NCBI GenBank assembly: GCA_023269085.1 | Contig: JAHFML010000002.1 | Location: 65,266 to 129,265 of the forward strand | Reading direction: 5' to 3' | DNA length: 64,000 nucleotides | From: a bacterium | GTDB taxonomy: Bacteria > Patescibacteriota > Minisyncoccia > Phycocordibacterales > Phycocordibacteraceae | Shown here: positions 1,681 to 63,321 of the stretch, piece by piece | How the letters are laid out: each line of letters begins with the position of its first letter | Numbering within the stretch: position 1 is the first letter of the stretch | Translations under genes and position numbers: made by a program | Notes under the pieces: generated by a model | Database searches by the model: none | What the model was told of the DNA's origin: nothing | Seen by the model: the letters and a program-made list of their open reading frames with translations, nothing else

Positions 1681-2391
1681 TCACCAAGGTTCGAGGGCTA
1701 CAGATGTTAATGACTCGTCATCGGCGTGATATTCGAGATGGCTGGCAAGCAGATCGCGCGCCTCATCCTTGAATGTTTGTACGTCTGGATAAAGCGCACG
1801 TAAGGGCTCGTGTTCGATAATCGGCGATTCTACAATCGAGAGAAACGCGGGGAGGCTGGAGAATTCATACGTGGTCGCCCAATTCCACGCATCATCAAAT
1901 TGTTCGGACGACCGCTTTAATCCGCCCGGGTATAATTCAAGCACGTTCTTGACCTGAATATAGAACGCGAGGTATCTAAGATGCGCATCTTCGGATACGG
2001 TACGACTTCGGTACGCGCCTTGGAACAGACTCCCACGCTCATCATATTTCGCGTTGAAGTGCGCAGTCATGCTTCCGAACACACGCTGCAGAAATTTCGT
2101 CGTTCCGTCTTCACGTATTTCTTCGATAAGGAGATGCACATGGTTGGGCATGAGTGTCCAAGCAAGAATATGAACAAGCGGTTCAGGTTCCGGCCACCAT
2201 TCCGGCCGGAAGAAATCATCGTGTCCCTCGACACTTTTCTTCCAGTTATCGTCATGAAAAGTGTCGTTCATGTAGAACAACAACTTTTGGAAGCGGCGTT
2301 GATCGGAGGCATCACGCGTGATATCCATACCGCGCACCCCACGCTTGGTCACATGCATAATCGAACCGATCCCATACGGCTCTACTCTCAT
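1681..2391 (-). CDS. IS200/IS605-family Y1 (HuH) transposase, REP-associated tyrosine transposase (RAYT)-like
   Basis: LMPNHVHLLIEE (HuH motif), GSLFQGAYRSR, LRYLAFYI tyrosine helix; flanked on both sides by REP-D palindromes. Confidence 0.75.
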   Translation of the reverse strand: MRVEPYGIGSIMHVTKRGVRGMDITRDASDQRRFQKLLFYMNDTFHDDNWKKSVEGHDDFFRPEWWPEPEPLVHILAWTLMPNHVHLLIEEIREDGTTKFLQRVFGSMTAHFNAKYDERGSLFQGAYRSRTVSEDAHLRYLAFYIQVKNVLELYPGGLKRSSEQFDDAWNWATTYEFSSLPAFLSIVESPIIEHEPLRALYPDVQTFKDEARDLLASHLEYHADDESLTSVALEPW

Positions 2392-3053: not shown

Positions 3054-3076
3054 GTATCGAAGTCAGACTTCGTTAC
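3054..3076. repeat. REP family D palindrome (copy 3, one mismatch)
   Basis: GTATCGAAGTCAGACTTCGTTAC between the hydrolase start and rpsA stop. Confidence 0.75.
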
Positions 3077-4197: not shown

Positions 4198-4234
4198 ATA
4201 TATAAGCGGCGCGGATTTTCCGAGGCGGTTCTGT

Positions 4235-4251
4235 CCAAGGTCGAACCTTGG
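4235..4251. repeat. REP family A palindrome CCAAGGTCGAACCTTGG (singlet)
   Basis: Seen directly in the intergenic region upstream of rpsA; same core as copies at 8059, 8473, 8979, 9175, 31258, 32574, 37918, 58067, 62193. Confidence 0.85.
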
Positions 4252-4550
4252 AATGCAGGGTTAGCCGACTCCTACTTCTTCGCACGCGATGAGGGGAGTG
4301 TAGCACAGAGCGTATAAAAGCTAAAGGACCTTCTTGACGAAGGTCCAGTCCTATAGAGCCGGTTGTTGGTCAGGTCGCCGCCGCGCCCAGGGTGGTCAGG
4401 CTGGCCATAGTCGGAGGCCCCGTGAGGCCGAAGCTAGAAGTGCGCATGTCGTTCTCCTTGAACGATTGAGGGCGGGTTTGCAGACGCGCCTACCAAACAA
4501 AAACAATCGGAAAGAGCGTCTGCAGGGACTATAGCAGAACGGGTGAGAAA

Positions 4551-5574: not shown

Positions 5575-8052
5575 ATGGCACGTGGGAAGGAAGATATGAA
5601 TAAAGACGCACCGACGCCAGTCGTGGTGAACATCATCGACCAGCCGATTGTTGCCGAGATGCGCACCTCGTATATCGACTATGCCATGTCGGTCATCACG
5701 AACCGCGCCCTGCCCGACGTGCGCGATGGATTGAAGCCGGTGCATCGCCGCATCCTCTACGCGATGAAGGAGCTCGGCCTCATGCCAGGAGCGAAGTTTA
5801 GGAAGAGCGCGCTCGTGGTCGGCGACGTGCTCGGTAAGTATCACCCGCACGGCGACATCGCCGTCTACGACTCGATGACGAAGATGGCGCAGGAGTTCTC
5901 GCATCGTTACCCGCTCGTTCTCGGTCAAGGCAACTTCGGATCTATCGACGGCGACTCACCGGCCGCGATGCGCTACACCGAGGCCAAACTCTCGCGCGTT
6001 GCCGAGGCCTTGCTCGCCGACCTCGACAAAGAGACTGTCGCCTGGAACCCGAACTATGACGCGACGCGCGACGAGCCCTCGGTGCTCCCCTCGGCGCTCC
6101 CGAACTTGCTCTTGAACGGGACACTCGGCATTGCGGTCGGCATGGCGACCAATATCCCGCCGCACAACCTGCGCGAGGTCGTCGCCGCGACGGTGCATCT
6201 CATCGAGAATCCAGACGCGACGACCGAGGATCTGCTCCAATTCGTCAAGGGCCCCGACTTCCCGCTCGGGGGTGTCGCCTTCAATCAGGCCGACATCCGC
6301 CATGCATATAGCTCGGGCAAGGGGCCGGTGGTCGTGCGCGGCGAGGCCGAGATAGTCGATGACGGCAAGAAGGACACGAAGATCATCATCACCTCGATCC
6401 CGTACCGCGTGAACAAGAGCGACATGATAGCGCGCATCGCCGATCTCGTACAGGAGAAGAAGATCGAGGGCATCCGCGACTTGCGCGACGAGTCGACAAG
6501 CGACATCCGCGTCGTCGTCGAGCTGAAGGGCACGGCGCATCCGCAGGCCGTTTTGAATGCGCTCTACAAGCACACCGAGCTTGAGAGCACCTTCCACTAC
6601 AACATGCTCGCGCTTGTCGAGGGCGTCCCCGAGATGCTCTCGCTCCAAGGGATGCTCACGCATTTCGTCGCGCATCGGCAGGAGGTGGTGAAGCGCCGCA
6701 CCGAGTTCGACTTGCGCCAAGCCGAGGCGCGCGAGCACATCCTCCTCGGCCTCTGCAAGGCGCTCGATCATATCGACGAAGTCATCGCGATAATCAAGAA
6801 GTCGGCTGATGTCCCGACGGCGAGCCAAGCGCTCCAGAAGAAATTCGGTTTTTCAATACTCCAAGCCGCCGCTATCCTCGAGATGCGTCTCTCCAAGCTC
6901 GCTGGCCTCGAACGCAAGAAGCTTGAGGACGAGCTCACCGAAGTGCAGGCTTTGATAAAGAAACTGAAAGAGATTCTCTCATCGGCGAAGAATATTCTCG
7001 CGGTGGTGAAGAGCGAGCTCGAGGAGTTGGCGCAGAAGTATGGCGACGATCGGCGCACGCGCATCGTGAAGGGCGGCGTGCAGAATATCTCGGTCGAGGA
7101 TCTCGTCCCCGACGAAGACTCGATGCTCCTTCTCACCCAAGGCGGCTATGTGAAGCGCACCAACCCTGACGAATACAAGAGCCAGAAGCGCGGTGGCGTG
7201 GGCGTCGTCGACATTGCGACCAAGGAGGAGGACGCGGTCACGCACTTCCTCGTTACGTCGGCGCACAGCGACCTACTCTTCTTCACCGACTTCGGCAAGG
7301 CGTATCAGATAAAAATGTATGAATTGCCCGAGGGGCGCCGTGCGACCAAGGGCAAGAGCATCATGAACTTCCTCTCGCTCGCGGGTGAAGAGAAGGTGAC
7401 CTCTATTCTGCCGGTTCCCAAAGGAGCCGCACTCGATGCGACGACGGTCGTCTTCGTGACCGAGCAGGGTGTGGTCAAGCGCGTCGCGGCCAAGGCCTTC
7501 GCGGATGTCCGCCGCTCGGGCATCATCGCAATAAATCTGAAGGACGGCGACAAGCTTGTGTCGGCCCATCGCGCGAATGAGGGCGACACGGTCTCGATAG
7601 TCACGGCGAAAGGGCAGTCGATCCGCTTCGACGTCGAGGAGACGCGCGAGATGGGTCGCACCGCGGGCGGGGTCAAGGGCATGAGCGTCAAGAAGGGCGA
7701 CCGCGTCGTCTCGGCCGAGGTTGTCCCTGCCGAGAAGGCGAAGGGCGCGTCACTCCTTGTCATTATGAGTAAGGGTTACGGCAAGCGCACGAAGATGAGC
7801 GAATATAAGGTACAAGGCCGCGGCGGCTCCGGTATCAAGACCGCCGATGTCACGCCGAAGACAGGCGAGATCATCGGCGCGAAGGTGGTCACGACAGACC
7901 TCGACGACGAAGAGATCGTCGTCATCTCGAAGAAGGGGCAGGTTATCCGCACGGGCGTCGCGACCATTTCGCTCCTCTCGCGCGCGACGCAGGGCGTCCG
8001 CATCATGCGCCTCTATGAGGGCGACAGTATCGCCTCCCTCGCCGCGCTGTAA
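5575..8052 (+). CDS. gyrA: DNA gyrase subunit A
   Basis: [20 protein letters not shown], active-site MRYTEAKL, C-terminal beta-pinwheel repeats; 825 aa. Confidence 0.95.
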
Positions 8053-8058
8053 TTTTGT

Positions 8059-8075
8059 CCAAGGTTCGACCTTGG
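8059..8075. repeat. REP family A palindrome CCAAGGTTCGACCTTGG (with conserved 5' flank TTTTGTCCAAGG)
   Basis: Seen directly, just after the gyrA stop. Confidence 0.85.
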
Positions 8076-8088
8076 AGTCGGGCGCATT

Positions 8089-8409
8089 GTGTGGTATCGT
8101 GCTCCTCGTTCTAACAACCCGAGGAGTTCTTTCATGAGACTTGGATATTTAATCATTTCCCCGAACGGATGTTCTTGTAACGTTCTTACGGAAGCGCCAG
8201 AAGGTGTCACGGTTGATTTGGAAGGTGGGAAGTGGAGATACGAATACGCTCACCACAAACAGGACGAGTTAATCGGCCATGGGTGCTATTTCGACAGGAC
8301 ATGGTCAGGCATGCTCATTGGTGTTTATGACCTCGACAATACTAAGCAGATCAACTCGATGGTTCGTGATGCCGTTGAGGCGCACAATGACCGTTCGGAT
8401 GCCGATTGA
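8089..8409 (+). CDS. Hypothetical small protein between two REP-A copies
   Basis: ORF only; Cys/His containing; no recognizable domain; may start at internal Met. Confidence 0.3.
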   Translation: MWYRAPRSNNPRSSFMRLGYLIISPNGCSCNVLTEAPEGVTVDLEGGKWRYEYAHHKQDELIGHGCYFDRTWSGMLIGVYDLDNTKQINSMVRDAVEAHNDRSDAD

Positions 8410-8472
8410 TGTTGGTTTGACACCCGTTTTTATTCTGCGCGCACCTCTGGTGCGCGCGGTTTTCGTTTTTGT

Positions 8473-8489
8473 CCAAGGTTCGACCTTGG
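8473..8489. repeat. REP family A palindrome (same 24-nt TTTTGTCCAAGGTTCGACCTTGGA as copy at 8054)
   Basis: Seen directly, adjacent to RAYT gene end at 8491. Confidence 0.85.
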
Positions 8490-8490
8490 A

Positions 8491-9150
8491 TTAATCAGGG
8501 GCGTAGGTAAGCCACTCGGTGACGAGCTCTTTAAACTCCATGCCAGAATCGAAATATCCAGGCAAGGCATTGGCGGTGAGGATGATATTCTCGGCACGCG
8601 TCTCGCCGAGATAATCGCGATAGCTTGATGGCGCGTATTGCGCGAGATATCGTTCTGCGGCCGCGCGGTCTCTGATCCCCGTCTCTTTCCATTTCTGTTC
8701 GATAATCTTCACTGGGTTGAGATGAATATACGAAACGAGATAGCGCAAATAACGGTCATCCGCGACATGAGTTGCCTTGAACTTCCCTTGGAAGAGGGAG
8801 CCGTTCCGGTCGTTCTTCTTATTGAAATACATCGTATAACCGGTAGTGAGCTTCTGCATGAACTTGCTGATGCCGCCTTCTTGAAGCTCGCGCACGAGGA
8901 GATGGAAATGGTTTGGCATAAGGCAGTACGCAGCAATCTCGACGAGCGGTTCTCCTTCTCGTTTTCCCACCAACTCGTCCAAGGTTCGACCTTGGAGTTT
9001 TAGAACGACAGGAGTGCTTTGGTTCGCAAAATAGAGAAGAGCAAGGAAGCGACGGTAGTCACTTTTGTCTAAGAAGACTTTCCGTTTCTCGGTGCCGCGA
9101 TTGTAAATGTGGTAGTACTCTTCTGGCGCGAATGCGAATGTTCGTTGCAT
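8491..9150 (-). CDS. IS200/IS605-family Y1 transposase, RAYT-like (second paralog), carrying an in-frame REP-A copy
   Basis: YCLMPNHFHLLVRE HuH motif, GSLFQGKFKAT, LRYLVSYI; REP-A at 8979-8995 lies inside the ORF and encodes ...KLQGRTLDEL... Confidence 0.8.
   Translation of the reverse strand: MQRTFAFAPEEYYHIYNRGTEKRKVFLDKSDYRRFLALLYFANQSTPVVLKLQGRTLDELVGKREGEPLVEIAAYCLMPNHFHLLVRELQEGGISKFMQKLTTGYTMYFNKKNDRNGSLFQGKFKATHVADDRYLRYLVSYIHLNPVKIIEQKWKETGIRDRAAAERYLAQYAPSSYRDYLGETRAENIILTANALPGYFDSGMEFKELVTEWLTYAPD
8979..8995. repeat. REP family A palindrome inside RAYT coding sequence
   Basis: CCAAGGTTCGACCTTGG within ORF 8491..9150, frame preserved. Confidence 0.8.
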
Positions 9151-9174
9151 AACACTCGAAGTGTAGCATTATTT

Positions 9175-9191
9175 CCAAGGTCGAACCTTGG
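9175..9191. repeat. REP family A palindrome (opposite orientation, CCAAGGTCGAACCTTGG)
   Basis: Seen directly just upstream of the RAYT start. Confidence 0.85.
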
Positions 9192-9253
9192 AAAACTTGC
9201 GAGAGGTGTTGATTGCGCGCGACCGAAGGTCGCGCGCATGGTATTTTATACCC

Positions 9254-9790
9254 ATGAGCGTCTCATTCAGTATCCCGCACGAGAATGTCCTGCGGCTCGG
9301 TCTCCACGAGGGCATGAAGGTCGGCGACTTCGGCGCGGGCTCTGGGCATTATGCCCGCGCCGCGGCCGCCATCGTTGGCTCGAGCGGGAAGGTCTATGCG
9401 ATTGATGTGCAAGAGGACATTCTCAAACACCTGAAGCTCAACACGCACGAGCACCACCAACGCACAATCGAAACAGTCTGGGGCGATATCGAGAAGCCGG
9501 GCGGCACTAACCTCCGCCCAGTGCTCCTCGACGCGGCTATCCTCGCGAACACCTTTTTCCAAGTCGAGAATCGGTTTGGCCTCCTCGCGGAGCTGAAGCG
9601 CGTCCTAAAGCCGGGTGGCAAGCTCATGCTCATCGACTGGGCGGGGAGCTATGGCGGCATGGGCCCCGCGCCCGAGCAGGTCGTGAGCGAGCATGAAGCA
9701 GAAAGTTTTTTTATCAGCGGTGGCTTCTATAAGGCCAGCTCCTTCCGCGCCGGACCGCATCATTACGGCATTATCTTCACCGCGCCATAG
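9254..9790 (+). CDS. Class I SAM-dependent methyltransferase
   Basis: Motif I VGDFGAGSGHYA, motif post-I VYAIDV; start moved to ATG 9254 because the upstream ORF part overlaps the REP. Confidence 0.7.
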   Translation: MSVSFSIPHENVLRLGLHEGMKVGDFGAGSGHYARAAAAIVGSSGKVYAIDVQEDILKHLKLNTHEHHQRTIETVWGDIEKPGGTNLRPVLLDAAILANTFFQVENRFGLLAELKRVLKPGGKLMLIDWAGSYGGMGPAPEQVVSEHEAESFFISGGFYKASSFRAGPHHYGIIFTAP

Positions 9791-9791
9791 T

Positions 9792-11099
9792 ATGAAAATC
9801 TCTCTCTTCCAAGGCATCTTGCTCGCGGTCTTCAGCTTCGCGGCGCTTATCGGTATCTTCGTCTTCGCGACGCACACGAGCAATTCTTCAAACACTTCTA
9901 CGGCTGTCGGCACTGTTGTCATCTGGGGCACGCTCCCGAAGGCAGGTCTGCAACAGGCGCTCACGATGCTCGCGCAGACAGACACCACGCTCAGCGGGAT
10001 CTCGTATGTGCAGAAGGATCAAAACGAATTCGCGACGGACCTTGCCGGGGCGATAGCGACTGGCGCCGCACCAGACTTAGTGCTCGCTTCGCAAGAAGAG
10101 TTGCAGTCGCTCACGAAACTTCTCACGCCGATACCTTCAGCGACGCTCTCGGCGGCAACCTTCACCTCGGCATTCATCGGCGAGAGCCGGCTCCTCCAGG
10201 TGCCCGACGGGTCAGGCTACTGGGGCCTCCCGTTCTTGGTTGATCCGCTCGTCCTCTTCTCGAACAGCTCAATCCTCGCGAGCAATGGCATCGCCGCACC
10301 TCCTGCGACATGGGAATCTCTCACGGGGCTCGTGCCAGTCGTAGCGAATCTCACGCCAACCAAGCAGATTACACGCGGTCTCATCGCGCTCGGCACCTAT
10401 GACAATGTCCGCGACGCGCGCGGCATCCTCTCGTCGCTCTTTATGCAAGTCGGTGTGCCGATCTCTACCTATCGCAATGGTGTCTTGGGAGTCGACTTGA
10501 GCGGGAGCCATTCGTCTGGCGTTGGCGCCGGACAGGCCGCGCTCGACTTCTATGCACAATTCGCCGATCCGTCGAAGCTCTCCTACACCTGGAACGCCTC
10601 GTTGCCCGATTCCCAGAAAGCATTTATCGCCGGCAATCTCGCGCTGTATCTCGGCTACGCTTCTGAAGCGCGTTTCCTGCGCGCCGCGAACCCGAACCTC
10701 GACTTCCGCGTGACTGCTCTGCCACAGCCCGCCACTGCCGCCGACAAGAGCACCTACGGGCTCCTCTACGCGCTCATGATCCCGCGCGGCGCGAAGAATG
10801 CATCGGGCGCCTTCGCCGCCGCGTCGCTCTTCACCAATAACGCCGGGCAAGCCGCCTTCGCGAATGCTACCGGCCTCGCGCCCGTCACGATCTCCAGACT
10901 CGCGACGACACCCGACGACCCTGTCGCGGCAGTCGCTGCCGCTGAGGCGTTGTACGCGAAGGGTTGGTTGTCCCCAGCGCCCGCCGATACGGACGCCATC
11001 TTTTCGAGTATGATTACCAGCGTGATCAGCGGCCGTCTCAACACTCTGACCGCGCTTACCACCGGGGCGAGCGCCCTCTCTATCCTCTTACAAAAATAA
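9792..11099 (+). CDS. Membrane-anchored extracellular solute-binding-protein-like protein (SBP family 1-like fold suspected)
   Basis: N-terminal TM ISLFQGILLAVFSFAALIGIFVF followed by ~400 aa Ala/Ser/Thr-rich periplasmic-like domain with MalE-like spacing; start moved to ATG 9792 (ORF track 9693 overlaps MTase). Confidence 0.45.
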   Translation: MKISLFQGILLAVFSFAALIGIFVFATHTSNSSNTSTAVGTVVIWGTLPKAGLQQALTMLAQTDTTLSGISYVQKDQNEFATDLAGAIATGAAPDLVLASQEELQSLTKLLTPIPSATLSAATFTSAFIGESRLLQVPDGSGYWGLPFLVDPLVLFSNSSILASNGIAAPPATWESLTGLVPVVANLTPTKQITRGLIALGTYDNVRDARGILSSLFMQVGVPISTYRNGVLGVDLSGSHSSGVGAGQAALDFYAQFADPSKLSYTWNASLPDSQKAFIAGNLALYLGYASEARFLRAANPNLDFRVTALPQPATAADKSTYGLLYALMIPRGAKNASGAFAAASLFTNNAGQAAFANATGLAPVTISRLATTPDDPVAAVAAAEALYAKGWLSPAPADTDAIFSSMITSVISGRLNTLTALTTGASALSILLQK

Positions 11100-18516: not shown

Positions 18517-19680
18517 ATGCCATGGCACAAGAAGCGCGTGTATCTCGATGTCGCCGCTGGGGTGGTGGGGAATTCGTCGTCGCCGCACGAGGAGGGCCGA
18601 GCCACGAAGGCAGTGCTTGAAGAGGCGCGACGTGATATCGCACGTCTCGTCGAGGTGCAGGCCGATGATGTCATCTTCACGAGTGGCGCGACGGAGAGTA
18701 ATGCAATCGCTATTCTCGGGATCCCGCGCGCGCTTCGCGCGCGCGGGGCGAGCAACATACACGCGCTCTACCTCTCGACCGCGCACGCCTCGATTGTCGA
18801 GAATATGAAAGTGCTCGAGAGTGAGGGTGTCGCTATTGAGGCGTTGCCTATTCGCGAGTCTCGCGTCGACACCGAGGCGCTTCGTGCGATGCTACGACCC
18901 GAGACGGTGCTGGTCGCGATGGAAGCCGTCTGCGGCGAGACGGGCGTGGTATGGAATACGCGTGCGGTTGCCGAGGTTCTTCAAAAGTACAAAATTGGAC
19001 ATGATATGTCCGATTTGGGTGGACACCTAGTGTCCACCCGTCTGCGGGTGTTTTTGCATGTCGACGCGAGTCAGGCGTCATTGACCGAGAAGATTTCGCG
19101 CGAGCACTTCGGCGCGGACACGCTCACGCTCGACGGCGCGAAGGTCGGGCCGCGTGGTATCGGCCTACTCGTCGCGCATCGGACGATACCGATGGCGCCA
19201 CTCTACGCGGGTGGCGGGCAGGAGCGGGGAGTGCGGCCGGGGAGCGAGGCGCCGGAGCTCGCGCGGGAGTTCGCGGCGGCGCTTCACGCCGCCACAGATG
19301 GTGCTCCTGCATTTCGCGCCGCCGCAGAGCGGCGGCGCGTCGAGCTTGTGACGAATCTCACCGCTATTCCAGGTTTGGTTATCAATGAGGGCCGTACGCA
19401 AGCGCCGAACATCCTCAACCTCTCGCTCCTCGGCCGCGATACGGATTATCTCGTCGCGCTTCTCGACGAGGCCGGCTTCGCGCTCGCGACGCGGAGCGCC
19501 TGTGAGACCGACAGCATGACCGGCTCGCGCGCGGTTGAGGCGCTCATGGGCGACGCCGCGCGCGCTCGCGCGACCCTACGCGTCTCGTGGGGGAGCGCGA
19601 CGCGTCCGCGCGACCTCACGGATTTTGCAAAGGCACTTTCGCGTGCGGTCGCATTCATTGACAGCGCCAACAAGAGGTAG
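18517..19680 (+). CDS. Cysteine desulfurase / class V aminotransferase (IscS/NifS-like) with in-frame palindrome insertions
   Basis: PLP fold-type I signatures (SGATESNAIA..., HVDASQA); two palindromes at 18997-19039 encode ...KIGHDMSDLGGHLVSTRL... in frame. Confidence 0.7.
   Translation: MPWHKKRVYLDVAAGVVGNSSSPHEEGRATKAVLEEARRDIARLVEVQADDVIFTSGATESNAIAILGIPRALRARGASNIHALYLSTAHASIVENMKVLESEGVAIEALPIRESRVDTEALRAMLRPETVLVAMEAVCGETGVVWNTRAVAEVLQKYKIGHDMSDLGGHLVSTRLRVFLHVDASQASLTEKISREHFGADTLTLDGAKVGPRGIGLLVAHRTIPMAPLYAGGGQERGVRPGSEAPELAREFAAALHAATDGAPAFRAAAERRRVELVTNLTAIPGLVINEGRTQAPNILNLSLLGRDTDYLVALLDEAGFALATRSACETDSMTGSRAVEALMGDAARARATLRVSWGSATRPRDLTDFAKALSRAVAFIDSANKR
18997..19011. repeat. 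Palindrome family C unit GGACATGATATGTCC
   Basis: Identical 15-mer at 61014-61028 (inside tgt). Confidence 0.8.
19017..19039. repeat. Palindrome family B unit GGGTGGACACCTAGTGTCCACCC
   Basis: Same core at 60303-60335 (tgt) and twice at 62541-62597 (uvrB). Confidence 0.85.
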
Positions 19681-30779: not shown

Positions 30780-33206
30780 TTATTTCAAATATTCAGCCGC
30801 TTCAGCGGGAGTGAACGAAGTGGGCGAGACAGACTCGGGGAGATAGATGCGACGGAGACCTTTCTTCAAAAAGAGACCCTGCTTTGATTTGTAGAGCACG
30901 ATAGTCTTGCCGGTCTTGGGGTGCTTACCGATCTCTTGTACGATCTCGACGCCGCGCGGCGGCTGCTTCGGCGCGGCAAGGAGCGCGAGCGCCGTGTCGA
31001 GCGTGACCGTGTAGGGGTCGCCGATCGCGGGCTTGAGCGAGCGGAATTCGCCATCGCTCCCGACGTAGGGGCCGAAGCGGCCGGTCGAAGCGAAAACGGT
31101 TTTGCCGGTGCTTGGGTGCATCCCGAGCTCGCGCGGGAGCGAGAGATAGTGGAGCGCGTCGGCGAGGGTCACCTGCGAGAGGTCGGTGCCGGCGGGGATG
31201 CTCGCGCGCTTGGCGGCAACCTTCGGGCGACCCTTTGCGCGCTTCTTCGGTTTCTTCGATTCAAGGTTCGACCTTGAATCCGAATCCTTAAGGTCGGACC
31301 TTGGTTCGGGTTCGGGCAACGCCATCTCGACATATGGCCCGAAGCGACCCGTCTTGATATAAATAGGCGCGCCAGTCGTCGGGTCATTGCCAATGGGCTC
31401 GTCACCTTTGAGCTCGACGCCCTCTTCGGTGCGCGCACCGAGACAGTCGGGATACTTCTTACAGCTCATGAAGATGCCGCCGCGACCGAGCTTCAGCTCC
31501 ATCGGGCTCCCGCAGAGAGGGCAAGTGAATTCGGGCGACACTTCGCCGAGCGAGGTCGCCTTCGGGAGCTTATCTTTTTCCTTCACCTGTCTCTCAAAGG
31601 GGCCGTAAAATTCGGAGAGCGTCTCCTTGTAGCCGCGCTCGCCGCGCGCGATCTCGTCGAGCTCGTCCTCCATCGTTGCGGTGAAGGAGTCGCTGATGTA
31701 GGTCGCGAAGTTTTCTTCGAGCCAGCCCGAGACGACCATACCGGTCGCCGTCGGCTTCAAGGTGCGGCCGGTCTTCTCGACGTATTCGCGGTCCGAGAGC
31801 GTCTTCATCGTTGAGGCATAGGTCGAGGGGCGGCCGATGCCGCGCTTCTCGAGCTCCTTGATGAGGCCGGCCTCGGTGTAGCGGTTCGGCGGTTCGGTCT
31901 GCTTCTCCTCCTCGCCGAGCGAGAGGAGCGTGAGCGGGTCGCCCTTCGCCACGCGGGGTAATTCGACATCCTCACCCTTCGCTTTCGTGTCGAGTGCGAG
32001 CCAGCCCGGGAAGAGTGTCCGCGAGCCGGTCGCCGCGAAGAGCGGAATGTCGGCATCGGCCTTCGCCGAAATATTCGTTCGCATGATTTTCGCGCTTGCC
32101 ATCTGCGAGGCGAGCGTGCGAACACGGATGAGCTCGTAGAGCGCGTGTTCGTCGGGCGTCGCGCCGGCATGTCCGCATGCGGCATCGGTGGGGCGGATTG
32201 CTTCGTGCGCCTCCTGCGCGTTCTTGCTCGTCGTCTTGTAGGCGCGCGTCTGGGCATACTCTTTACCGAATTCTTGCTCGATGACCGTTATCATTTTCGC
32301 GACGGCTTCGGCACCGAGATTGACCGAGTCGGTGCGCATGTAGGTGATGTGGCCGGCTTCATAGAGCTTCTGTGCGGCCCGCATCGCGCGCGAGGGCGCG
32401 AAGCCGAGACGCGTCGACGCGACCTGTTGGAGCGTCGAGGTGGTGAAGGGCGGACGCGGGGATCGCTCCTCCGCCTTTTCTATAATGTCAGCGACCTGCC
32501 AAGCGGCGGCGCGACCGAGCCTCACGATGCGCCCTGCTTCTTCGCGCGTCGCGGGCTCCTCGACGCAGGTAGTCATCAAGGTCGAACCTTGAACTTCAAG
32601 GTTCGACCTTGATGACGAGAAGGAGGCACGGAGGACGAAATAGGTGACGGGCACGAACGCTTTGATCTCGCGCTCGCGTTCGGCGAGGATCCGGAGCGCG
32701 GGCGATTGCACGCGGCCGGCCGAGAGCCCGTAACGAACTTTCTTCCAGATGAGTCCCGAGAGATCATAGCCGACGATGCGGTCGAGCACGCGCCGCGCCT
32801 CTTGCGCCTGCCGCAAATCTTCGTCGATAGTGCGCGGGTGGGCAAGCGCCTCTTCGATAGCGGCCTTGGTAATCTCGTGGAAGGCGACGCGCTTGGGCTT
32901 CTTCAGCTTCGCCACCTCCTTGATATGCCAGGCGATAGCTTCGCCCTCGCGGTCGGGGTCGGTCGCGAGATACACCTCGTCGGCCTTGGCGGCTGCGGCC
33001 CGTATCTTCTCGATGATCTCCTGCTTCTCGGGCGGGATGATGTAGTGCGGCACGAAGCCGCCCTCGATATCGACCGCATCGATATTGCTCTTGGGCAAAT
33101 CGCGCACATGCCCGACCGAGGCCAAGACCGTGTAGCCTTTCCCGAGGTAGGTGCCGATAGTGCGCGCCTTGGTGGGCGACTCAACGATGAGAAGACGGTT
33201 CGTCAT
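30780..33206 (-). CDS. topA: DNA topoisomerase I, carrying two in-frame REP-A doublet insertions
   Basis: Toprim N-terminus MTNRLLIVESPTKARTI, catalytic domain, C-terminal zinc ribbons (CPLCGSPM...); insertions encode ...SSSRSNLEVQGSTLMTT... and ...RSDLKDSDSRSNLES... Confidence 0.9.
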   Translation of the reverse strand: MTNRLLIVESPTKARTIGTYLGKGYTVLASVGHVRDLPKSNIDAVDIEGGFVPHYIIPPEKQEIIEKIRAAAAKADEVYLATDPDREGEAIAWHIKEVAKLKKPKRVAFHEITKAAIEEALAHPRTIDEDLRQAQEARRVLDRIVGYDLSGLIWKKVRYGLSAGRVQSPALRILAEREREIKAFVPVTYFVLRASFSSSRSNLEVQGSTLMTTCVEEPATREEAGRIVRLGRAAAWQVADIIEKAEERSPRPPFTTSTLQQVASTRLGFAPSRAMRAAQKLYEAGHITYMRTDSVNLGAEAVAKMITVIEQEFGKEYAQTRAYKTTSKNAQEAHEAIRPTDAACGHAGATPDEHALYELIRVRTLASQMASAKIMRTNISAKADADIPLFAATGSRTLFPGWLALDTKAKGEDVELPRVAKGDPLTLLSLGEEEKQTEPPNRYTEAGLIKELEKRGIGRPSTYASTMKTLSDREYVEKTGRTLKPTATGMVVSGWLEENFATYISDSFTATMEDELDEIARGERGYKETLSEFYGPFERQVKEKDKLPKATSLGEVSPEFTCPLCGSPMELKLGRGGIFMSCKKYPDCLGARTEEGVELKGDEPIGNDPTTGAPIYIKTGRFGPYVEMALPEPEPRSDLKDSDSRSNLESKKPKKRAKGRPKVAAKRASIPAGTDLSQVTLADALHYLSLPRELGMHPSTGKTVFASTGRFGPYVGSDGEFRSLKPAIGDPYTVTLDTALALLAAPKQPPRGVEIVQEIGKHPKTGKTIVLYKSKQGLFLKKGLRRIYLPESVSPTSFTPAEAAEYLK
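31258..31304. repeat. REP family A doublet inside topA (GATTCAAGGTTCGACCTTGAATC ... AAGGTCGGACCTTGG)
   Basis: Two inverted REP units ~10 bp apart; reading frame of topA preserved. Confidence 0.85.
32574..32614. repeat. REP family A doublet inside topA: 41-nt perfect palindrome CATCAAGGTCGAACCTTGAAcTTCAAGGTTCGACCTTGATG
   Basis: Seen directly; frame preserved. Confidence 0.9.
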
Positions 33207-37160: not shown

Positions 37161-38186
37161 ATGTCATTCTGGCAGAAACTCCCGAAACCTTTTTTCGTCA
37201 TGGCGCCGATGGCAGATGTCACCGATGCCGCCTTCCGCGCGCTTATCGCGAGCCGCGCTGCGCCCGACGTTTTCTGGACCGAGTTCGTCTCGGCCGACGG
37301 GCTCTATCACACCCGCGAGATCGCACGGATGCCGGACAATGAGAACCCACTCATGCGCGACCTTTTGAAGAGCAGTGCGGAGCGGCCGATAGTCGCGCAG
37401 ATATTTTCAAACAAGCCGGAGATGATCGCGTATGCGACGCGCGTGGTTGCTGACCTTGGCTTCGACGGCGTCGATCTCAACATGGGCTGCCCTGATAGAG
37501 CGATAGAGCGGCAGGGGAGCGGTGCCGCGATGCTGAAGTCGCCGGAGGTAGCCCGCGCGGTAATCCGCGCGGCGAAGGGTGCGAGTAGCTTGCCCGTCAC
37601 GGTCAAGACGCGTGTCGGGTATAATCGCGAATCGCTCGATGAGTGGCTGCCCGTCTTGCTCGAAGAAGCGCCGGCCGCTATCACGCTGCACCTGCGCACA
37701 CGCAAAGAGTTGTCGCTCGTACCCGCGCAGTGGGAGCTCATGAAGAGGGCGGTCGCTCTTCGCGATAGCCTCAATCCTGACGTACTCCTTATCGGTAACG
37801 GCGATGTGACGAGTGTTGAGCAGGGTAAGCGGCTTGTCGATGAGACCGGTTGCGATGGCGTCATGATCGGCCGCGGCATGTTCGGCAATCCGTGGGTCTT
37901 TGAGGGATTGACGCGCACACCAAGGTCGGACCTTCGGTCCGAATTCTCAAGGTCCGACCTTGGTGTGCGCGAACATGGGCTCTCCGAAAAGCTCGAAGCT
38001 TTAGTTGAGCTCGCGCATAACTTCGAGAAGCTCTTGCCGCCCAAAAATTTCTCCATACTCAAGAAGCACATCAAAGCCTTTGCCACGGGCTTCGACGGCG
38101 CTGCCGATCTCCGCGCGCGCCTTATGCTCGCCGACTCTGCTACTGAGCTCGAAGGGATTGTTGCAGAATACGTAGATGGAGCGTAA
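37161..38186 (+). CDS. tRNA-dihydrouridine synthase (DusB-like) with an in-frame REP-A doublet insertion
   Basis: FFVMAPMADVTDAAFR, LNMGCP, TIM-barrel FMN motifs; insertion encodes ...LTRTPRSDLRSEFSRSDLGVRE... Confidence 0.85.
   Translation: MSFWQKLPKPFFVMAPMADVTDAAFRALIASRAAPDVFWTEFVSADGLYHTREIARMPDNENPLMRDLLKSSAERPIVAQIFSNKPEMIAYATRVVADLGFDGVDLNMGCPDRAIERQGSGAAMLKSPEVARAVIRAAKGASSLPVTVKTRVGYNRESLDEWLPVLLEEAPAAITLHLRTRKELSLVPAQWELMKRAVALRDSLNPDVLLIGNGDVTSVEQGKRLVDETGCDGVMIGRGMFGNPWVFEGLTRTPRSDLRSEFSRSDLGVREHGLSEKLEALVELAHNFEKLLPPKNFSILKKHIKAFATGFDGAADLRARLMLADSATELEGIVAEYVDGA
37918..37965. repeat. REP family A doublet inside dus gene: 48-nt hairpin CACCAAGGTCGGACCTT-cggtccgaattctc-AAGGTCCGACCTTGGTG
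   Basis: Seen directly; loop contains GAATTC as in the uvrB copy. Confidence 0.9.
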
Positions 38187-57554: not shown

Positions 57555-58070
57555 ATGAATCCGATCCAGACTGGTATCGCTACCGCCCTCGCGCTCGTCG
57601 TTGTCGCCGTTTTCTTCTTCTTCCCGAGCTTGCTCCCCTTTGGCCAATCGGCACCGACAGAGCCAGCACAGGTGAGCGTCGCCGCTACCACTAATCAACA
57701 ACTAGCTTCAACCACTATGCCAACAGAAAATGTTACCGATCTCCAGATAACCGACGAGACCATCGGCACTGGCGCCGTCGCCGCCGCGGGCGACACCGTT
57801 ACGGTCAACTATGTCGGTGCGCTCACGAACGGTACCGTCTTTGACGCTTCGGCGAATCACGGCTCGACCGGCTTCACCTTCCCGCTTGGGGCAGGGCAGG
57901 TTATCAAGGGTTGGGACATGGGCGTCGCAGGGATGAAGGAGGGTGGCAAGCGCAAGCTCGTCATCCCGGCCTCGCTTGCCTATGGCGACCGCGCGGTAGG
58001 GAATGTCATCCCGGCAAGTGCGACGCTCATCTTCGAGGTCGAGCTCGTGAAGGTGCAGAAAGGGAAGTAA
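57555..58070 (+). CDS. FKBP-type peptidyl-prolyl cis-trans isomerase (membrane-anchored/secreted)
   Basis: GDTVTVNYVGALTNGTVFDAS...FTFPLGAGQVIKGWDMGVAGMKEGGKRKLVIPASLAYG FKBP signature. Confidence 0.9.
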   Translation: MNPIQTGIATALALVVVAVFFFFPSLLPFGQSAPTEPAQVSVAATTNQQLASTTMPTENVTDLQITDETIGTGAVAAAGDTVTVNYVGALTNGTVFDASANHGSTGFTFPLGAGQVIKGWDMGVAGMKEGGKRKLVIPASLAYGDRAVGNVIPASATLIFEVELVKVQKGK

Positions 58071-58119
58071 CCAAGGTTCGACCTTAAGAAATTTGGGCCA
58101 AAGGTCGAACCTTGGTTAC
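58067..58119. repeat. REP family A doublet forming a 19-bp-stem hairpin GTAACCAAGGTTCGACCTT-loop-AAGGTCGAACCTTGGTTAC
   Basis: Starts inside the FKBP stop codon; a second GC hairpin terminator follows. Confidence 0.9.
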
Positions 58120-61214: not shown

Positions 61215-63321
61215 CTTCAAACTCCACACTCCCTACCAGCCGGCAGGCGACCAGCCGGCGGCTATCGCGGCGCTCGAGAGCGGACTCGAGGCGGGCATGC
61301 GCCATCAGACGCTCTTTGGCGTGACGGGCTCGGGCAAGACCTTCACCATCGCGAACGTCATCGCAGCGCATGACAAGCCGACCCTCGTCCTCGCACACAA
61401 CAAGACCCTCGCGGCCCAGCTCGCGCAAGAGTATCGCGAATTCTTTCCCGAGAACGCCGTCCACTATTTTGTCTCTTACTACGACTACTATCAGCCCGAG
61501 GCCTATATCGCGCACTCCGACACCTACATCGAGAAGGAAGCAATGATAAACGCCGAGATTGATCGCCTCCGCCACGCGGCAACGCAAGCGCTTCTCACGC
61601 GCAAGGACGTCATCATCGTCGCGTCGGTCTCGGCGATCTACGGGCTTGGCTCGCCGGCAGAATATGAGAAGGTGCACGTGAAGATTGAGAAGGGCGCCGC
61701 GGAGGATCGCGCGGCGCTGATCCGCAAGCTCGTGGGTATCCACTTCGAACGCACGCCTGCCGACTTGAACCCTGGTCAGGTGCGCGCTATCGGGAACTCG
61801 CTCGAGCTGATGCCGGTCAACGAGCGCGTTATCTATCGCGTCGCTTTCGAGGGCGACACGATTGTGCGCATTGATCAGCTCGACCCGATCTCGCGCGCAC
61901 TTGTCGCGTCGCCCTCGTCTATTTTCATATTTCCCGCGAAGCACTTCATCACGAGCGAAGCAGAGCGGGTACGCGCGATCGAGGACATCAAGCTCGAACT
62001 CGATGGGCAATTGGCGAAGTTCAAGAGGGAAGCGAAGCCGCTTGAAGCCGAACGCTTGAAACGCCGCACCTTGAGCGACCTCGCGCTCATCCGCGAGATG
62101 GGTTATACCAACGGTATCGAAAATTATTCGCGCCACTTCGACGGTCGCAAGAGCGGCGAGCCGCCCTTCACGCTTCTTTCATACTTCCCACACCGGAATC
62201 AAGGTCGAACCTTACATACGAATTCTCAAGGTTCGACCTTGATTCCGGATTTCCTTACCATCATCGACGAGTCTCACGTGACGGTCCCGCAGCTCGGCGG
62301 CATGTACGCGGGCGATCGCTCACGCAAGGACGTGCTCGTCGAATACGGCTTCAGGCTCCCTTCGGCGCGCGACAATCGGCCGCTCAACTTCGAAGAGTTC
62401 GAAGAGCGTGTTGGGCAGGTTATCTATACGAGCGCAACGCCGGGCCCCTATGAGCGCGCACATGCTGAGCAGGTAGTCGAGCAAGTCATCCGCCCGACGG
62501 GCCTCATCGACCCGGAGCTCGTCATCCGCCCGGTGTCTGGGGAGGCGGGTGGACACCTAGTGTCCACCCATTTAGACACTAGGTGTCCACCCGCCTCCTA
62601 TCGCGGGCAGGTGGCGAACTTTATCAGTGAAGCCGAGGTCGTCATCAAGCGCGGCGGCCGCGCGCTCGCAACCACGCTCACCAAGCAGATGGCCGAAGAC
62701 CTCTCCTCATTCTTGCGCGAGAAAGGTATAAAAGCCGAGTATCTCCACTCTGACGTGAAGACGATCGACCGCATCGACATCCTCACCAAGTTCCGCAAGG
62801 GCGAGTTCGATATTCTCGTCGGCGTCAACCTGCTTCGCGAAGGACTCGACTTGCCCGAGGTCGAGCTCGTCGGCATCCTCGACGCGGACAAAGAAGGCTT
62901 CTTGCGCAGTGAGACCTCGCTCATCCAGACTATCGGCCGTGCCGCGCGCAACGTGCTCGGCCGCGTGATTCTCTATGCCGACGTGATGACCAAGTCGCTC
63001 GAGAAGGCTATTGGCGAGACCAATCGCCGCCGCGCGCTCCAAGTGGCCTACAACGAGAAGCACAGCATCACGCCGAAGACGATTCACAAAGAGATTCGCG
63101 ACATCGCTGCGAGCATGCGGAGCGACCACCAGAAGACGATTGACGAACTTCTGGTGCTCGACACGCTCGCGTACAAGGATGATCCGAAGGCTTTTGTCGC
63201 GCGTAAGCGAGAGGAGATGGCCGAAGCGGTCGAGAAGCTCGACTTCGAAACCGCCGCGCTTATTCGCGACGAGCTCTTCAAGCTTGAGGACGGCGGGTCG
63301 AAAGGGAAGAAGAAACGGTAA
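61207..63321 (+). CDS. uvrB: Excinuclease ABC subunit B with two in-frame palindrome insertions
   Basis: Walker A GVTGSGKTFT, helicase motifs, C-terminal UvrB/UvrC-interaction helix (LIRDELFKLE); start moved to ATG 61207; insertions encode ...HRNQGRTLHTNSQGSTLIPD... and ...GEAGGHLVSTHLDTRCPPASYRG... Confidence 0.9.
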   Translation: MANFKLHTPYQPAGDQPAAIAALESGLEAGMRHQTLFGVTGSGKTFTIANVIAAHDKPTLVLAHNKTLAAQLAQEYREFFPENAVHYFVSYYDYYQPEAYIAHSDTYIEKEAMINAEIDRLRHAATQALLTRKDVIIVASVSAIYGLGSPAEYEKVHVKIEKGAAEDRAALIRKLVGIHFERTPADLNPGQVRAIGNSLELMPVNERVIYRVAFEGDTIVRIDQLDPISRALVASPSSIFIFPAKHFITSEAERVRAIEDIKLELDGQLAKFKREAKPLEAERLKRRTLSDLALIREMGYTNGIENYSRHFDGRKSGEPPFTLLSYFPHRNQGRTLHTNSQGSTLIPDFLTIIDESHVTVPQLGGMYAGDRSRKDVLVEYGFRLPSARDNRPLNFEEFEERVGQVIYTSATPGPYERAHAEQVVEQVIRPTGLIDPELVIRPVSGEAGGHLVSTHLDTRCPPASYRGQVANFISEAEVVIKRGGRALATTLTKQMAEDLSSFLREKGIKAEYLHSDVKTIDRIDILTKFRKGEFDILVGVNLLREGLDLPEVELVGILDADKEGFLRSETSLIQTIGRAARNVLGRVILYADVMTKSLEKAIGETNRRRALQVAYNEKHSITPKTIHKEIRDIAASMRSDHQKTIDELLVLDTLAYKDDPKAFVARKREEMAEAVEKLDFETAALIRDELFKLEDGGSKGKKKR
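62193..62248. repeat. REP family A doublet inside uvrB: 21-bp-stem hairpin CCGGAATCAAGGTCGAACCTT-acatacgaattctc-AAGGTTCGACCTTGATTCCGG
   Basis: Seen directly. Confidence 0.9.
62541..62597. repeat. Palindrome family B composite (two GGTGGACAC/GTGTCCACC units, outer arms GGAGGCGGG/CCCGCCTCC) inside uvrB
   Basis: GGAGGCGGGTGGACACCTAGTGTCCACCCatttaGACACTAGGTGTCCACCCGCCTCC. Confidence 0.85.

Follow-up and report, generated by a model that had tools for sequence, protein, structure and literature searches.

Positions 8472-9192 of a 64,000-nucleotide stretch of the Patescibacteriota contig JAHFML010000002.1 hold a compact unit in which a gene for a REP-associated tyrosine transposase (RAYT) is bracketed by two copies of a short repetitive extragenic palindrome (REP), here termed REP-A, and carries a third copy inside its own open reading frame (ORF). 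The whole stretch analysed is referred to as the window and abbreviated WIN where it is compared with fetched related loci, which bear L-numbers. The unit is a member of a very extensive family of class-2 Y1 HUH enzymes in Patescibacteria, of the RAYT type or that of tyrosine transposases associated with terminal inverted repeats (TIRYT), and represents a REPtron-like unit with a conserved third, in-ORF hairpin that is probably kept as a cis site for the enzyme the unit itself encodes. REPtrons are reportedly RAYT or TnpAREP genes flanked by their cognate REPs, as set out by Nunvar in 2010, Bertels and Rainey in 2011 and Ton-Hoang in 2012. Such systems and their RAYT/TnpAREP enzymes are described in PMC3479197, PMC5581495 and PMC6006769.

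Direct reading and a pattern search located the 19-nt palindrome TCCAAGGTTCGACCTTGGA (TCCAAGGT-TCG-ACCTTGGA) in exact form on the plus strand at 8058-8076, 8472-8490 and 8978-8996, and its reverse complement, with loop CGA, at 9174-9192 and 4234-4252. These five exact copies in 64 kb compare with an expectation of 0, and at up to three mismatches 14 strand-matches were found against 0.00 expected from 100 shuffles. As single-stranded DNA (ssDNA) each copy is predicted by folding to form a stem of 8 bp and a loop of 3 nt, with an energy of about -7 to -10 kcal/mol. A preliminary description of this DNA had reported a Y1 gene flanked by REP-A copies, two of them within identical 24-nt repeats, and a further copy in frame within the ORF, and the sequence bears out both statements: the exact flanking copies start at 8058, 8472 and 9174, and the 24-nt TTTTGTCCAAGGTTCGACCTTGGA (TTTTG followed by the REP) is identical at 8053-8076 and 8467-8490. 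The principal features of the locus are as follows.

8491-9150, minus strand: RAYT-like class-2 Y1 HUH gene encoding 219 aa, with the HuH motif H81-F-H83 at 8902-8910 and the catalytic Tyr141 (YIHLNP) at 8728-8730
8472-8490, minus strand: downstream flanking hairpin (DOWN), 0 nt from the TAA stop codon, loop oriented as in the internal copy, within the 24-nt repeat 8467-8490
8978-8996, minus strand: internal hairpin (INT), in frame, codons 52-58 (LQGRTLD), centred on the second base of codon R55
9174-9192, minus strand: upstream flanking hairpin (UP), 23 nt ahead of the ATG and with its loop in the opposite orientation to INT
8053-8076, plus strand: extra REP-A copy, prefixed by TTTTG like 8467-8490, directly after the gyrA stop codon, bracketing a small ORF together with 8467-8490

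The internal copy begins at the second base of codon 52 and ends at that of codon 58 (L-Q-G-R-T-L-D). The 5' neighbours of the hairpins are TTTTG, GTTT and GCAT, and AAAC on the gene strand for INT, with no GTAG or CGTC among them; a search for a conserved guide tetranucleotide adjoining the hairpins likewise revealed none.

The internal copy is old and fixed in position. A homologue search with the 219-aa protein returned more than 7900 matches, mostly from Patescibacteria, Kaiserbacteria or Minisyncoccota where named, and the best 120 of them (63-100% identity) were analysed. These are mostly 217-223 aa long and align without a gap at the INT site, and hairpin-less members of the family and of the clade also keep the loop length with no gap there; INT is therefore not an insertion. 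Among the same 120 homologues G54 is invariant, L50, Q53, T56 and L57 are either invariant or conserved in at least 90%, and LQG[RS]TL as a whole is nearly invariant. The notion, put forward in the preliminary description, of a transposase invaded by its own REP is accordingly not supported, given equal lengths, the lack of a gap and a palindrome at the homologous codon across a deep clade.

Comparison with 160 related loci, to which five more were later added, revealed in many of them perfect palindromes of differing sequence at the homologous codon position, with stems of 6-15 bp and a centre that falls on the middle base of a codon in every case, 59 or 50 nt ahead of the Y of YCLMPNHFH (clades were obtained by average-linkage clustering on identity, so that clade statements are approximate). 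Thus L009 carries CTCCAGGAAGGC-CGG-GCCTTCCTGGAG, read as LQEGRAFLE, L011 carries TCCAAGGG-CTC-CCCTTGGA, read as IQGLPLD, and L041 carries ...GGC-AAG-GCC..., read as QGKAL, while the internal stems of L017 and L086 reach 14 and 15 bp. Of 156 genes, 18 show a perfect 8/8 stem at this position, as do none of 159 control windows in the same phase, and relative to the rest of the gene the site has an about 24-fold excess of stems of 8 bp or longer. Other in-gene hairpin hot spots, at +107 (YFNKKY), +71, +143 and +182 from the Y of YCLMPNHFH, were rejected because they are AT-rich renderings of invariant amino-acid motifs that show neither covariation nor a match to the flanks.

Covariation was assessed on 72 sequences picked solely by protein alignment in the Q53-L57 columns. 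Paired cells amount to 64.4%, against 51.0% in shuffles, and double-sided changes to 134 cells, against 70, neither value being reached in any of 500 shuffles; the covariation score of 0.299 compares with 0.138 in shuffles and 0.11-0.15 in slid-partner controls. Stem length is bimodal, with at least five consecutive pairs in 33 of the 72 sequences and 0-2 in most others. The 14-bp internal stem of L017 includes an outer 9 bp absent from the flanks of that locus, and relative to its sister L013 it shows a paired change from CAG/CTG to AAT/ATT; a stem extending beyond the flanks, together with paired changes, argues that the internal pairing is sustained independently, whether through selection or through template switching that corrects palindromes. 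Because palindromes occupy the homologous codon position across a deep clade and are kept by covariation, INT is an old, maintained feature and not a recent invasion.

The phase of the palindrome has direct consequences for the protein. Being centred on the middle base of a codon, it reads in frame in either orientation, and codon complementarity forces pairs of residues on its two arms: CAA/TTG yields Q/L, GAA/TTC yields E/F, and with GGN/NCC a G is matched by T, P, A or S. Inversion of the loop swaps CGA (Arg) and TCG (Ser), so that WIN and L002 have R55 and L004, with the same stem, has S55; among the 120 homologues this position is S in 57 and R in 55. In the structural model described below, residues 51-60 form a coil with a predicted local distance difference test (pLDDT) value of about 51, between helix 29-41 (alpha-A) and strand 70-77 (beta-2), and this low-confidence surface loop would be a site tolerant of a DNA-dictated peptide.

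Both flanks, upstream and downstream, were available for 146 family genes, and the two flanks of a gene have at least 12 nt in common in 123 of them and at least 16 nt in 106; the shared segments comprise 118 distinct sequences, of which 104 have an AGG-N5-CCT core. Since 123 of the 146 genes have a hairpin common to both flanks, flanking hairpins are a family-wide trait. In 37 of the 146 genes a flank and the 70-nt internal site also agree over 16 nt or more, compared with a single such match when the remaining 560 nt of the gene were used and 3 of 1460 comparisons with flanks from other loci. The variants are specific to each genome (TTCAAGG.., ACAAGG..TCA.., CAGCAAGG.., AGCAAGGCGAGA.. and CATAGGACTCC.., for instance), and all four of four extra close relatives fetched later show the triad, each with its own stem variant. 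Because INT is mostly identical to both flanks of the same genome, the UP, INT and DOWN copies evolve in concert.

In the explanation we favour, the encoded enzyme would bind the hairpin and cut it as ssDNA, by analogy with TnpAREP and with the TnpA of IS608; its activity would spread singletons and REPIN-like (REP doublet) arrangements, including in-frame copies in topA, dus and uvrB; and the copy in the ORF would be retained as a third cis site for the same enzyme. The last step is the least certain: the copy would most likely be a self-binding or autoregulatory site, or else a selection-protected master copy that re-templates the flanks. That the in-ORF hairpin is in this sense a functional third recognition site, tying the RAYT gene to its own hairpin family as master copy or autoregulatory self-target, we put forward tentatively, as a possibility on the doubtful side.

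Several points weigh against the favoured explanation. Binding and cleavage of the hairpin are extrapolated from homologues just 13-15% identical to the protein, and E. coli TnpAREP requires a GTAG guide and a bulge (PMC3479197), so that for the perfect hairpins seen here, which have neither, recognition must differ from that of the E. coli enzyme. The internal hairpin is gone from about half of the clade (intact in 33 of 72) and is hence dispensable. A search for an orientation rule among the UP, INT and DOWN loops found all combinations, and such free variation among genomes is hard to square with a strictly strand-specific reaction. Most relatives show few or no copies beyond the triad in the roughly 20 kb examined. 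Finally, template switching or gene conversion could produce concerted evolution and perfect palindromes without any function.

This last point leads to the main rival, which is somewhat unlikely but deserves serious consideration: a REP inserted a single time, long ago, into a tolerant loop of the gene's ancestor and has since been a passenger with no function of its own, its palindrome and its identity to the flanks being kept by template-switch quasi-palindrome correction and by short-tract gene conversion with copies 200-500 nt away. Consistent with it, the peptide lies in a low-confidence coil, the free loop flips, with S and R at position 55 in a ratio of about 50:50, the hairpin has decayed at unchanged length in many lineages (L006, L008 and L012 among them), and mismatches show no excess of sense-strand G.T over A.C. 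A mere passenger fits less well with a hairpin that persists at one codon position among genes just 45-60% identical, with stems that are either intact or gone, with a copy always in the frame-symmetric phase, and with the L017 stem, whose outer 9 bp have no counterpart in the flanks and whose changes relative to L013 are paired.

In most relatives a hairpin lies at or just past the stop codon. The UP hairpin of relatives precedes the ATG by about 25-45 nt and stands directly before a TATAAT or TATACT box. By eye, such a box was recognised 7-12 nt before the ATG in L001, L003, L004, L006, L011, L020, L041, L112 and L162-L165, and the UP hairpin takes the -35 or spacer position of this putative promoter; a sigma-70 promoter scan of the locus region found none. 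A box so near the start codon suggests a leaderless or near-leaderless mRNA. INT and the stop-codon hairpin might act in the transcript through ribosome pausing, mRNA stabilisation or processing, an explanation that we regard as improbable. Both INT and DOWN would be transcribed, and REPs downstream of ORFs have been proposed as RNA elements (PMC3733652). Yet the UP copy keeps the same sequence although its place upstream of the putative -10 box probably leaves it out of the mRNA, and sense-strand G.U pairing is not favoured, with 7 G.T against 15 A.C mismatches. INT is followed by no T-run and is therefore not a terminator, and an Rfam scan of 7800-9500 gave no family match, merely two sub-threshold chance hits.

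A conventional insertion sequence (IS) of the IS200/IS605 type, with the flanking hairpins as its left and right ends and the dispersed copies as derivatives resembling palindrome-associated transposable elements (PATE-like), is very improbable on the evidence of both the enzyme and the locus. The 219-aa protein matches the Pfam family Y1_Tnp at 41.9 bits (cutoff 23) and the NCBIfam model NF047646 (REP_Tyr_transpos) at 50.5 bits, below the cutoff of 80, and it is related to the canonical TnpAREP without being an equivalog of it. H81-F-H83 and Y141-IHLNP are invariant in the homologue alignments and align with PEHMH and YIYINP of E. coli TnpAREP (4ER8). An AlphaFold model (AF2, pLDDT 86.6) comprises a beta-alpha-beta-beta-alpha-beta-alpha core and a helical C-terminal domain, and a Foldseek search with it returned 4ER8, TnpAREP bound to a REP, as the top match in the Protein Data Bank, with a target-normalised TM-score of 0.68. 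We take 4ER8 to be the product of E. coli yafM. Compared with the motif table of PMC6006769, NHFH / FQ / YIHLNP form a class-2 signature that is closest to subclass 2.1; no helix-turn-helix (HTH) domain was matched in Pfam at E<=0.1. Sequence and model together argue for a RAYT-type (class-2 Y1 HUH) enzyme and not an IS200 TnpA, in agreement with the type first assigned to it, and its Y-x3-NP motif and 219 aa differ from the Y-x3-Q motif and roughly 150 aa of IS200/IS605 enzymes (Table 1, PMC6006769).

The surroundings of the unit bear on the same question. The gap between gyrA and a methyltransferase gene holds the unit in WIN, L002-L004, L162, L163 and L165. In L006 the unit is inverted in place and more diverged (9930-10790; RAYT 57% identical, GyrA 85%), in L041 and L044 the gap is empty, in L016 (3660-4680) and L161 another Y1 paralogue fills it, and in L164 the unit lies between rpsB and prfA. 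The unit is thus mostly inherited in place, yet able to relocate. Its compact hairpin-gene-hairpin layout and its relocation over evolutionary time are what an IS200/IS605 element would show; its conserved synteny, the absence of a tnpB gene or neighbour, and a gene present as a single copy in 64 kb, whose sole paralogue in the window shares 40% identity and bears a hairpin of its own, are not. The gyrA-methyltransferase gap also stands out as a recurrent landing site for Y1 genes.

REP-A is not confined to the unit. Hairpins of the REP-A type number 10 in the window against 1.3 expected, and five doublets are present. Beyond the copies at the unit, they are placed as follows.

4234-4252, minus strand: exact REP-A singleton upstream of the S1 (rpsA-like) gene
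31258-31305: second REP-A-like doublet in topA, in frame, between the Zn ribbon and the C-terminal repeats
32575-32613: inverted doublet formed by REP-A variants (TCAAGGTCGAACCTTGA / TCAAGGTTCGACCTTGA), REPIN-like and in frame within topA (..SSRSNLEVQGSTLM..)
37920-37963: REP-A-like doublet in dus, in frame, with loops CGG and CCG
58070-58116: REP-A-like doublet immediately past the stop codon of the FKBP gene
62197-62244: REP-A doublet in uvrB, which inserts 18 aa in frame (HRNQGRTLHTNSQGSTLI) when compared with solved UvrB structures

The gene identities given earlier for these dispersed copies (topA, dus, uvrB and the region after the FKBP gene) are correct, topA being hit twice. The doublet in uvrB stands just before the DESH box and appears as a clean gap when aligned to solved UvrB, and in-frame REP doublets lengthen TopA, Dus and UvrB by 13-22 aa. 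They add peptides such as SRSNLEVQGSTLM and HRNQGRTLHTNSQGSTLI. A recent invasion of the RAYT ORF by a mobile REP, as first proposed, would agree with such insertions and with the exact identity of INT to other copies in the genome, but is extremely unlikely given that homologues show no length difference, that dozens of genomes have a palindrome at the same site and that LQG[RS]TL is nearly invariant.

Further RAYT paralogues near REP-A had been suggested as worth seeking, and the window contains one, although flanked by a different palindrome. This second Y1_Tnp gene (1681-2391, minus strand; 236 aa, 40% identical to the main gene, Y motif YIQVKN) has its own 21-nt palindrome, TATCGAAGTC[T/A]GACTTCGATA (hairpin TATCGAAGTCNGACTTCGATA), at 1653-1673 and 2413-2433, and the S1 gene ends in a third copy, at 3055-3075; no internal copy was found in the paralogue. 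The end of its ORF (..ALEPW*) overlaps half a REP-A-like sequence, TCGAACCTTGG. In L128 two divergent Y1 genes each have a different hairpin. A third palindrome family, GGACACCTAGTGTCC, occurs at 62545-62592 and also at 19021, 60312 and 50101, and an inverted doublet of this family forms a 22-aa in-frame insertion (GEAGGHLVSTHLDTRCPPASYR) in UvrB.

Two further kinds of element adjoin the unit.

8134-8409, plus strand: orphan 91-aa ORF with a GAGGAG Shine-Dalgarno-like sequence, between two direct REP-A copies
8435-8459, plus strand: GC-rich terminator-like palindrome just outside the unit, with its partner at 9214-9238
9214-9238, plus strand: GC-rich palindrome upstream of the UP hairpin, related to 8435-8459

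The orphan ORF has no Pfam or NCBIfam match, tblastn finds no copy of it in L001-L160, and it is missing from the syntenic loci L002-L004. Its sole homologue, P0122 (L161, 1038-1316), is bracketed by that locus's own, different REP beside a Y1 gene, and the ORF may be a companion or cargo gene of RAYT units. A REP of the GGACACCTAGTGTCC type in L161 flanks both the different Y1 paralogue and this small-ORF homologue, and L162 also has a 91-aa ORF (9576-9851) beside its RAYT gene. The GC-rich palindromes read GCGCGCACC-TCT-GGTGCGCGC and GCGCGCGACC-GAA-GGTCGCGCGC, and similar ones adjoin the unit in L006 and L161.

Set beside known REPtrons, the unit shares the Y1 HUH fold with HuH and Y-x3-NP motifs, a low-copy gene in which each paralogue has its own hairpin family, hairpins on both sides of the gene that within the window are dispersed as well, some of them as inverted doublets (REPINs), and a locus largely syntenic among close relatives. 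It differs in its short perfect palindromes with an AGG-N5-CCT core and neither a bulge nor a 5' GTAG/CGTC tag, in a 26-aa loop between alpha-A and beta-2 and a helical C-terminal domain of about 70 aa, in an NCBIfam equivalog score below cutoff, in the third copy conserved inside the ORF and in its Patescibacteria host. Canonical REP types are defined by a 5' GT[AG]G/CGTC tag, which subclasses 2.6 and 3 also lack (PMC6006769). The classification papers PMC6006769 and PMC5581495 make no mention of Patescibacteria, Parcubacteria or candidate phyla, and a literature search joining RAYT or REPIN with Patescibacteria listed no paper combining all three terms, while REP and Candidate Phyla Radiation (CPR) co-occur in the full text of one paper.

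In motif signature, length and C-terminal extension the 219-aa protein matches subclass 2.1, or TIRYT, for which NH[YF]H, FQ and Y[IV]HLNP, a median of 238 aa and an HTH-like C-terminal extension are given (Quentin 2018, PMC6006769; Di Nocera 2013, PMC3733652). For that subclass no REPs are reported, only terminal inverted repeats (TIRs) with GGGGWSAS (PMC6006769; PMC3733652), whereas the protein studied here has no HTH match in Pfam and the flanks of its gene carry AGG-N5-CCT REP-like hairpins instead of GGGGWSAS TIRs. A precedent for the internal copy is subclass 2.4, in which in-frame REPs occur inside tnpAREP genes, elsewhere in the gene and variable (Quentin et al. 2018, PMC6006769). Both cases have a cognate REP in the RAYT's own reading frame, left undisrupted, in a peripheral region of the protein. 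Here, by contrast, the copy precedes HuH (codons 52-58 against 81-83) at a fixed position and phase, with no length change, covariation across a deep clade and concerted evolution with the flanks, and the motifs NHFH / FQ / YIHLNP place the protein outside subclass 2.4.

With the TnpA enzymes of IS200/IS605 elements such as IS608 and ISDra2 the unit has in common the fold, the hairpin-gene-hairpin layout and a presumed ssDNA hairpin substrate; the Y-x3-Q motif, length of about 150 aa, many near-identical copies and frequent tnpB of those elements were not seen here. Rickettsia palindromic elements (RPE) sit in frame within housekeeping genes. REPs within genes for replication and repair are also on record (Di Nocera et al. 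2013, PMC3733652). The REP doublets that add residues in frame to TopA, Dus and UvrB resemble these two precedents, which are sporadic and add length, unlike the copy within the RAYT gene, which is old and adds none. A RAYT gene containing its own REP had been called unusual at the outset, and in part this has to be tempered, since in-frame REPs in tnpAREP genes of subclass 2.4 (PMC6006769) and REPs in repair genes (PMC3733652) were already reported. What is new is an internal copy of fixed position and phase, deeply conserved, covarying and concerted with its flanks, as are the CPR host, the association of REPs with a 2.1-like motif class reported without them, and perfect hairpins without a GTAG tag.

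How RAYTs and populations of REPs and REPINs stay matched over the long term is an open question in the field, for which this family offers a natural data set. A cognate hairpin lies at a fixed codon inside the enzyme gene in 37 of 146 genes, and potentially in many more of the over 7900 homologues, and because it lies within the gene, enzyme and target can be matched to each other within one short contig and their co-variation read directly. The family extends REPtron-type systems to the CPR and to a 2.1-like motif class, and presents a case in which selection or mutational bias acting on a DNA structure fixes residues of a protein (Q/L, E/F, and G with T, P, A or S), with a switch between R and S through loop inversion. 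Should the internal copy prove to be a third recognition site, thousands of Patescibacteria genes would each record their own DNA specificity, and a nucleic-acid palindrome would dictate part of a protein sequence through codon complementarity.

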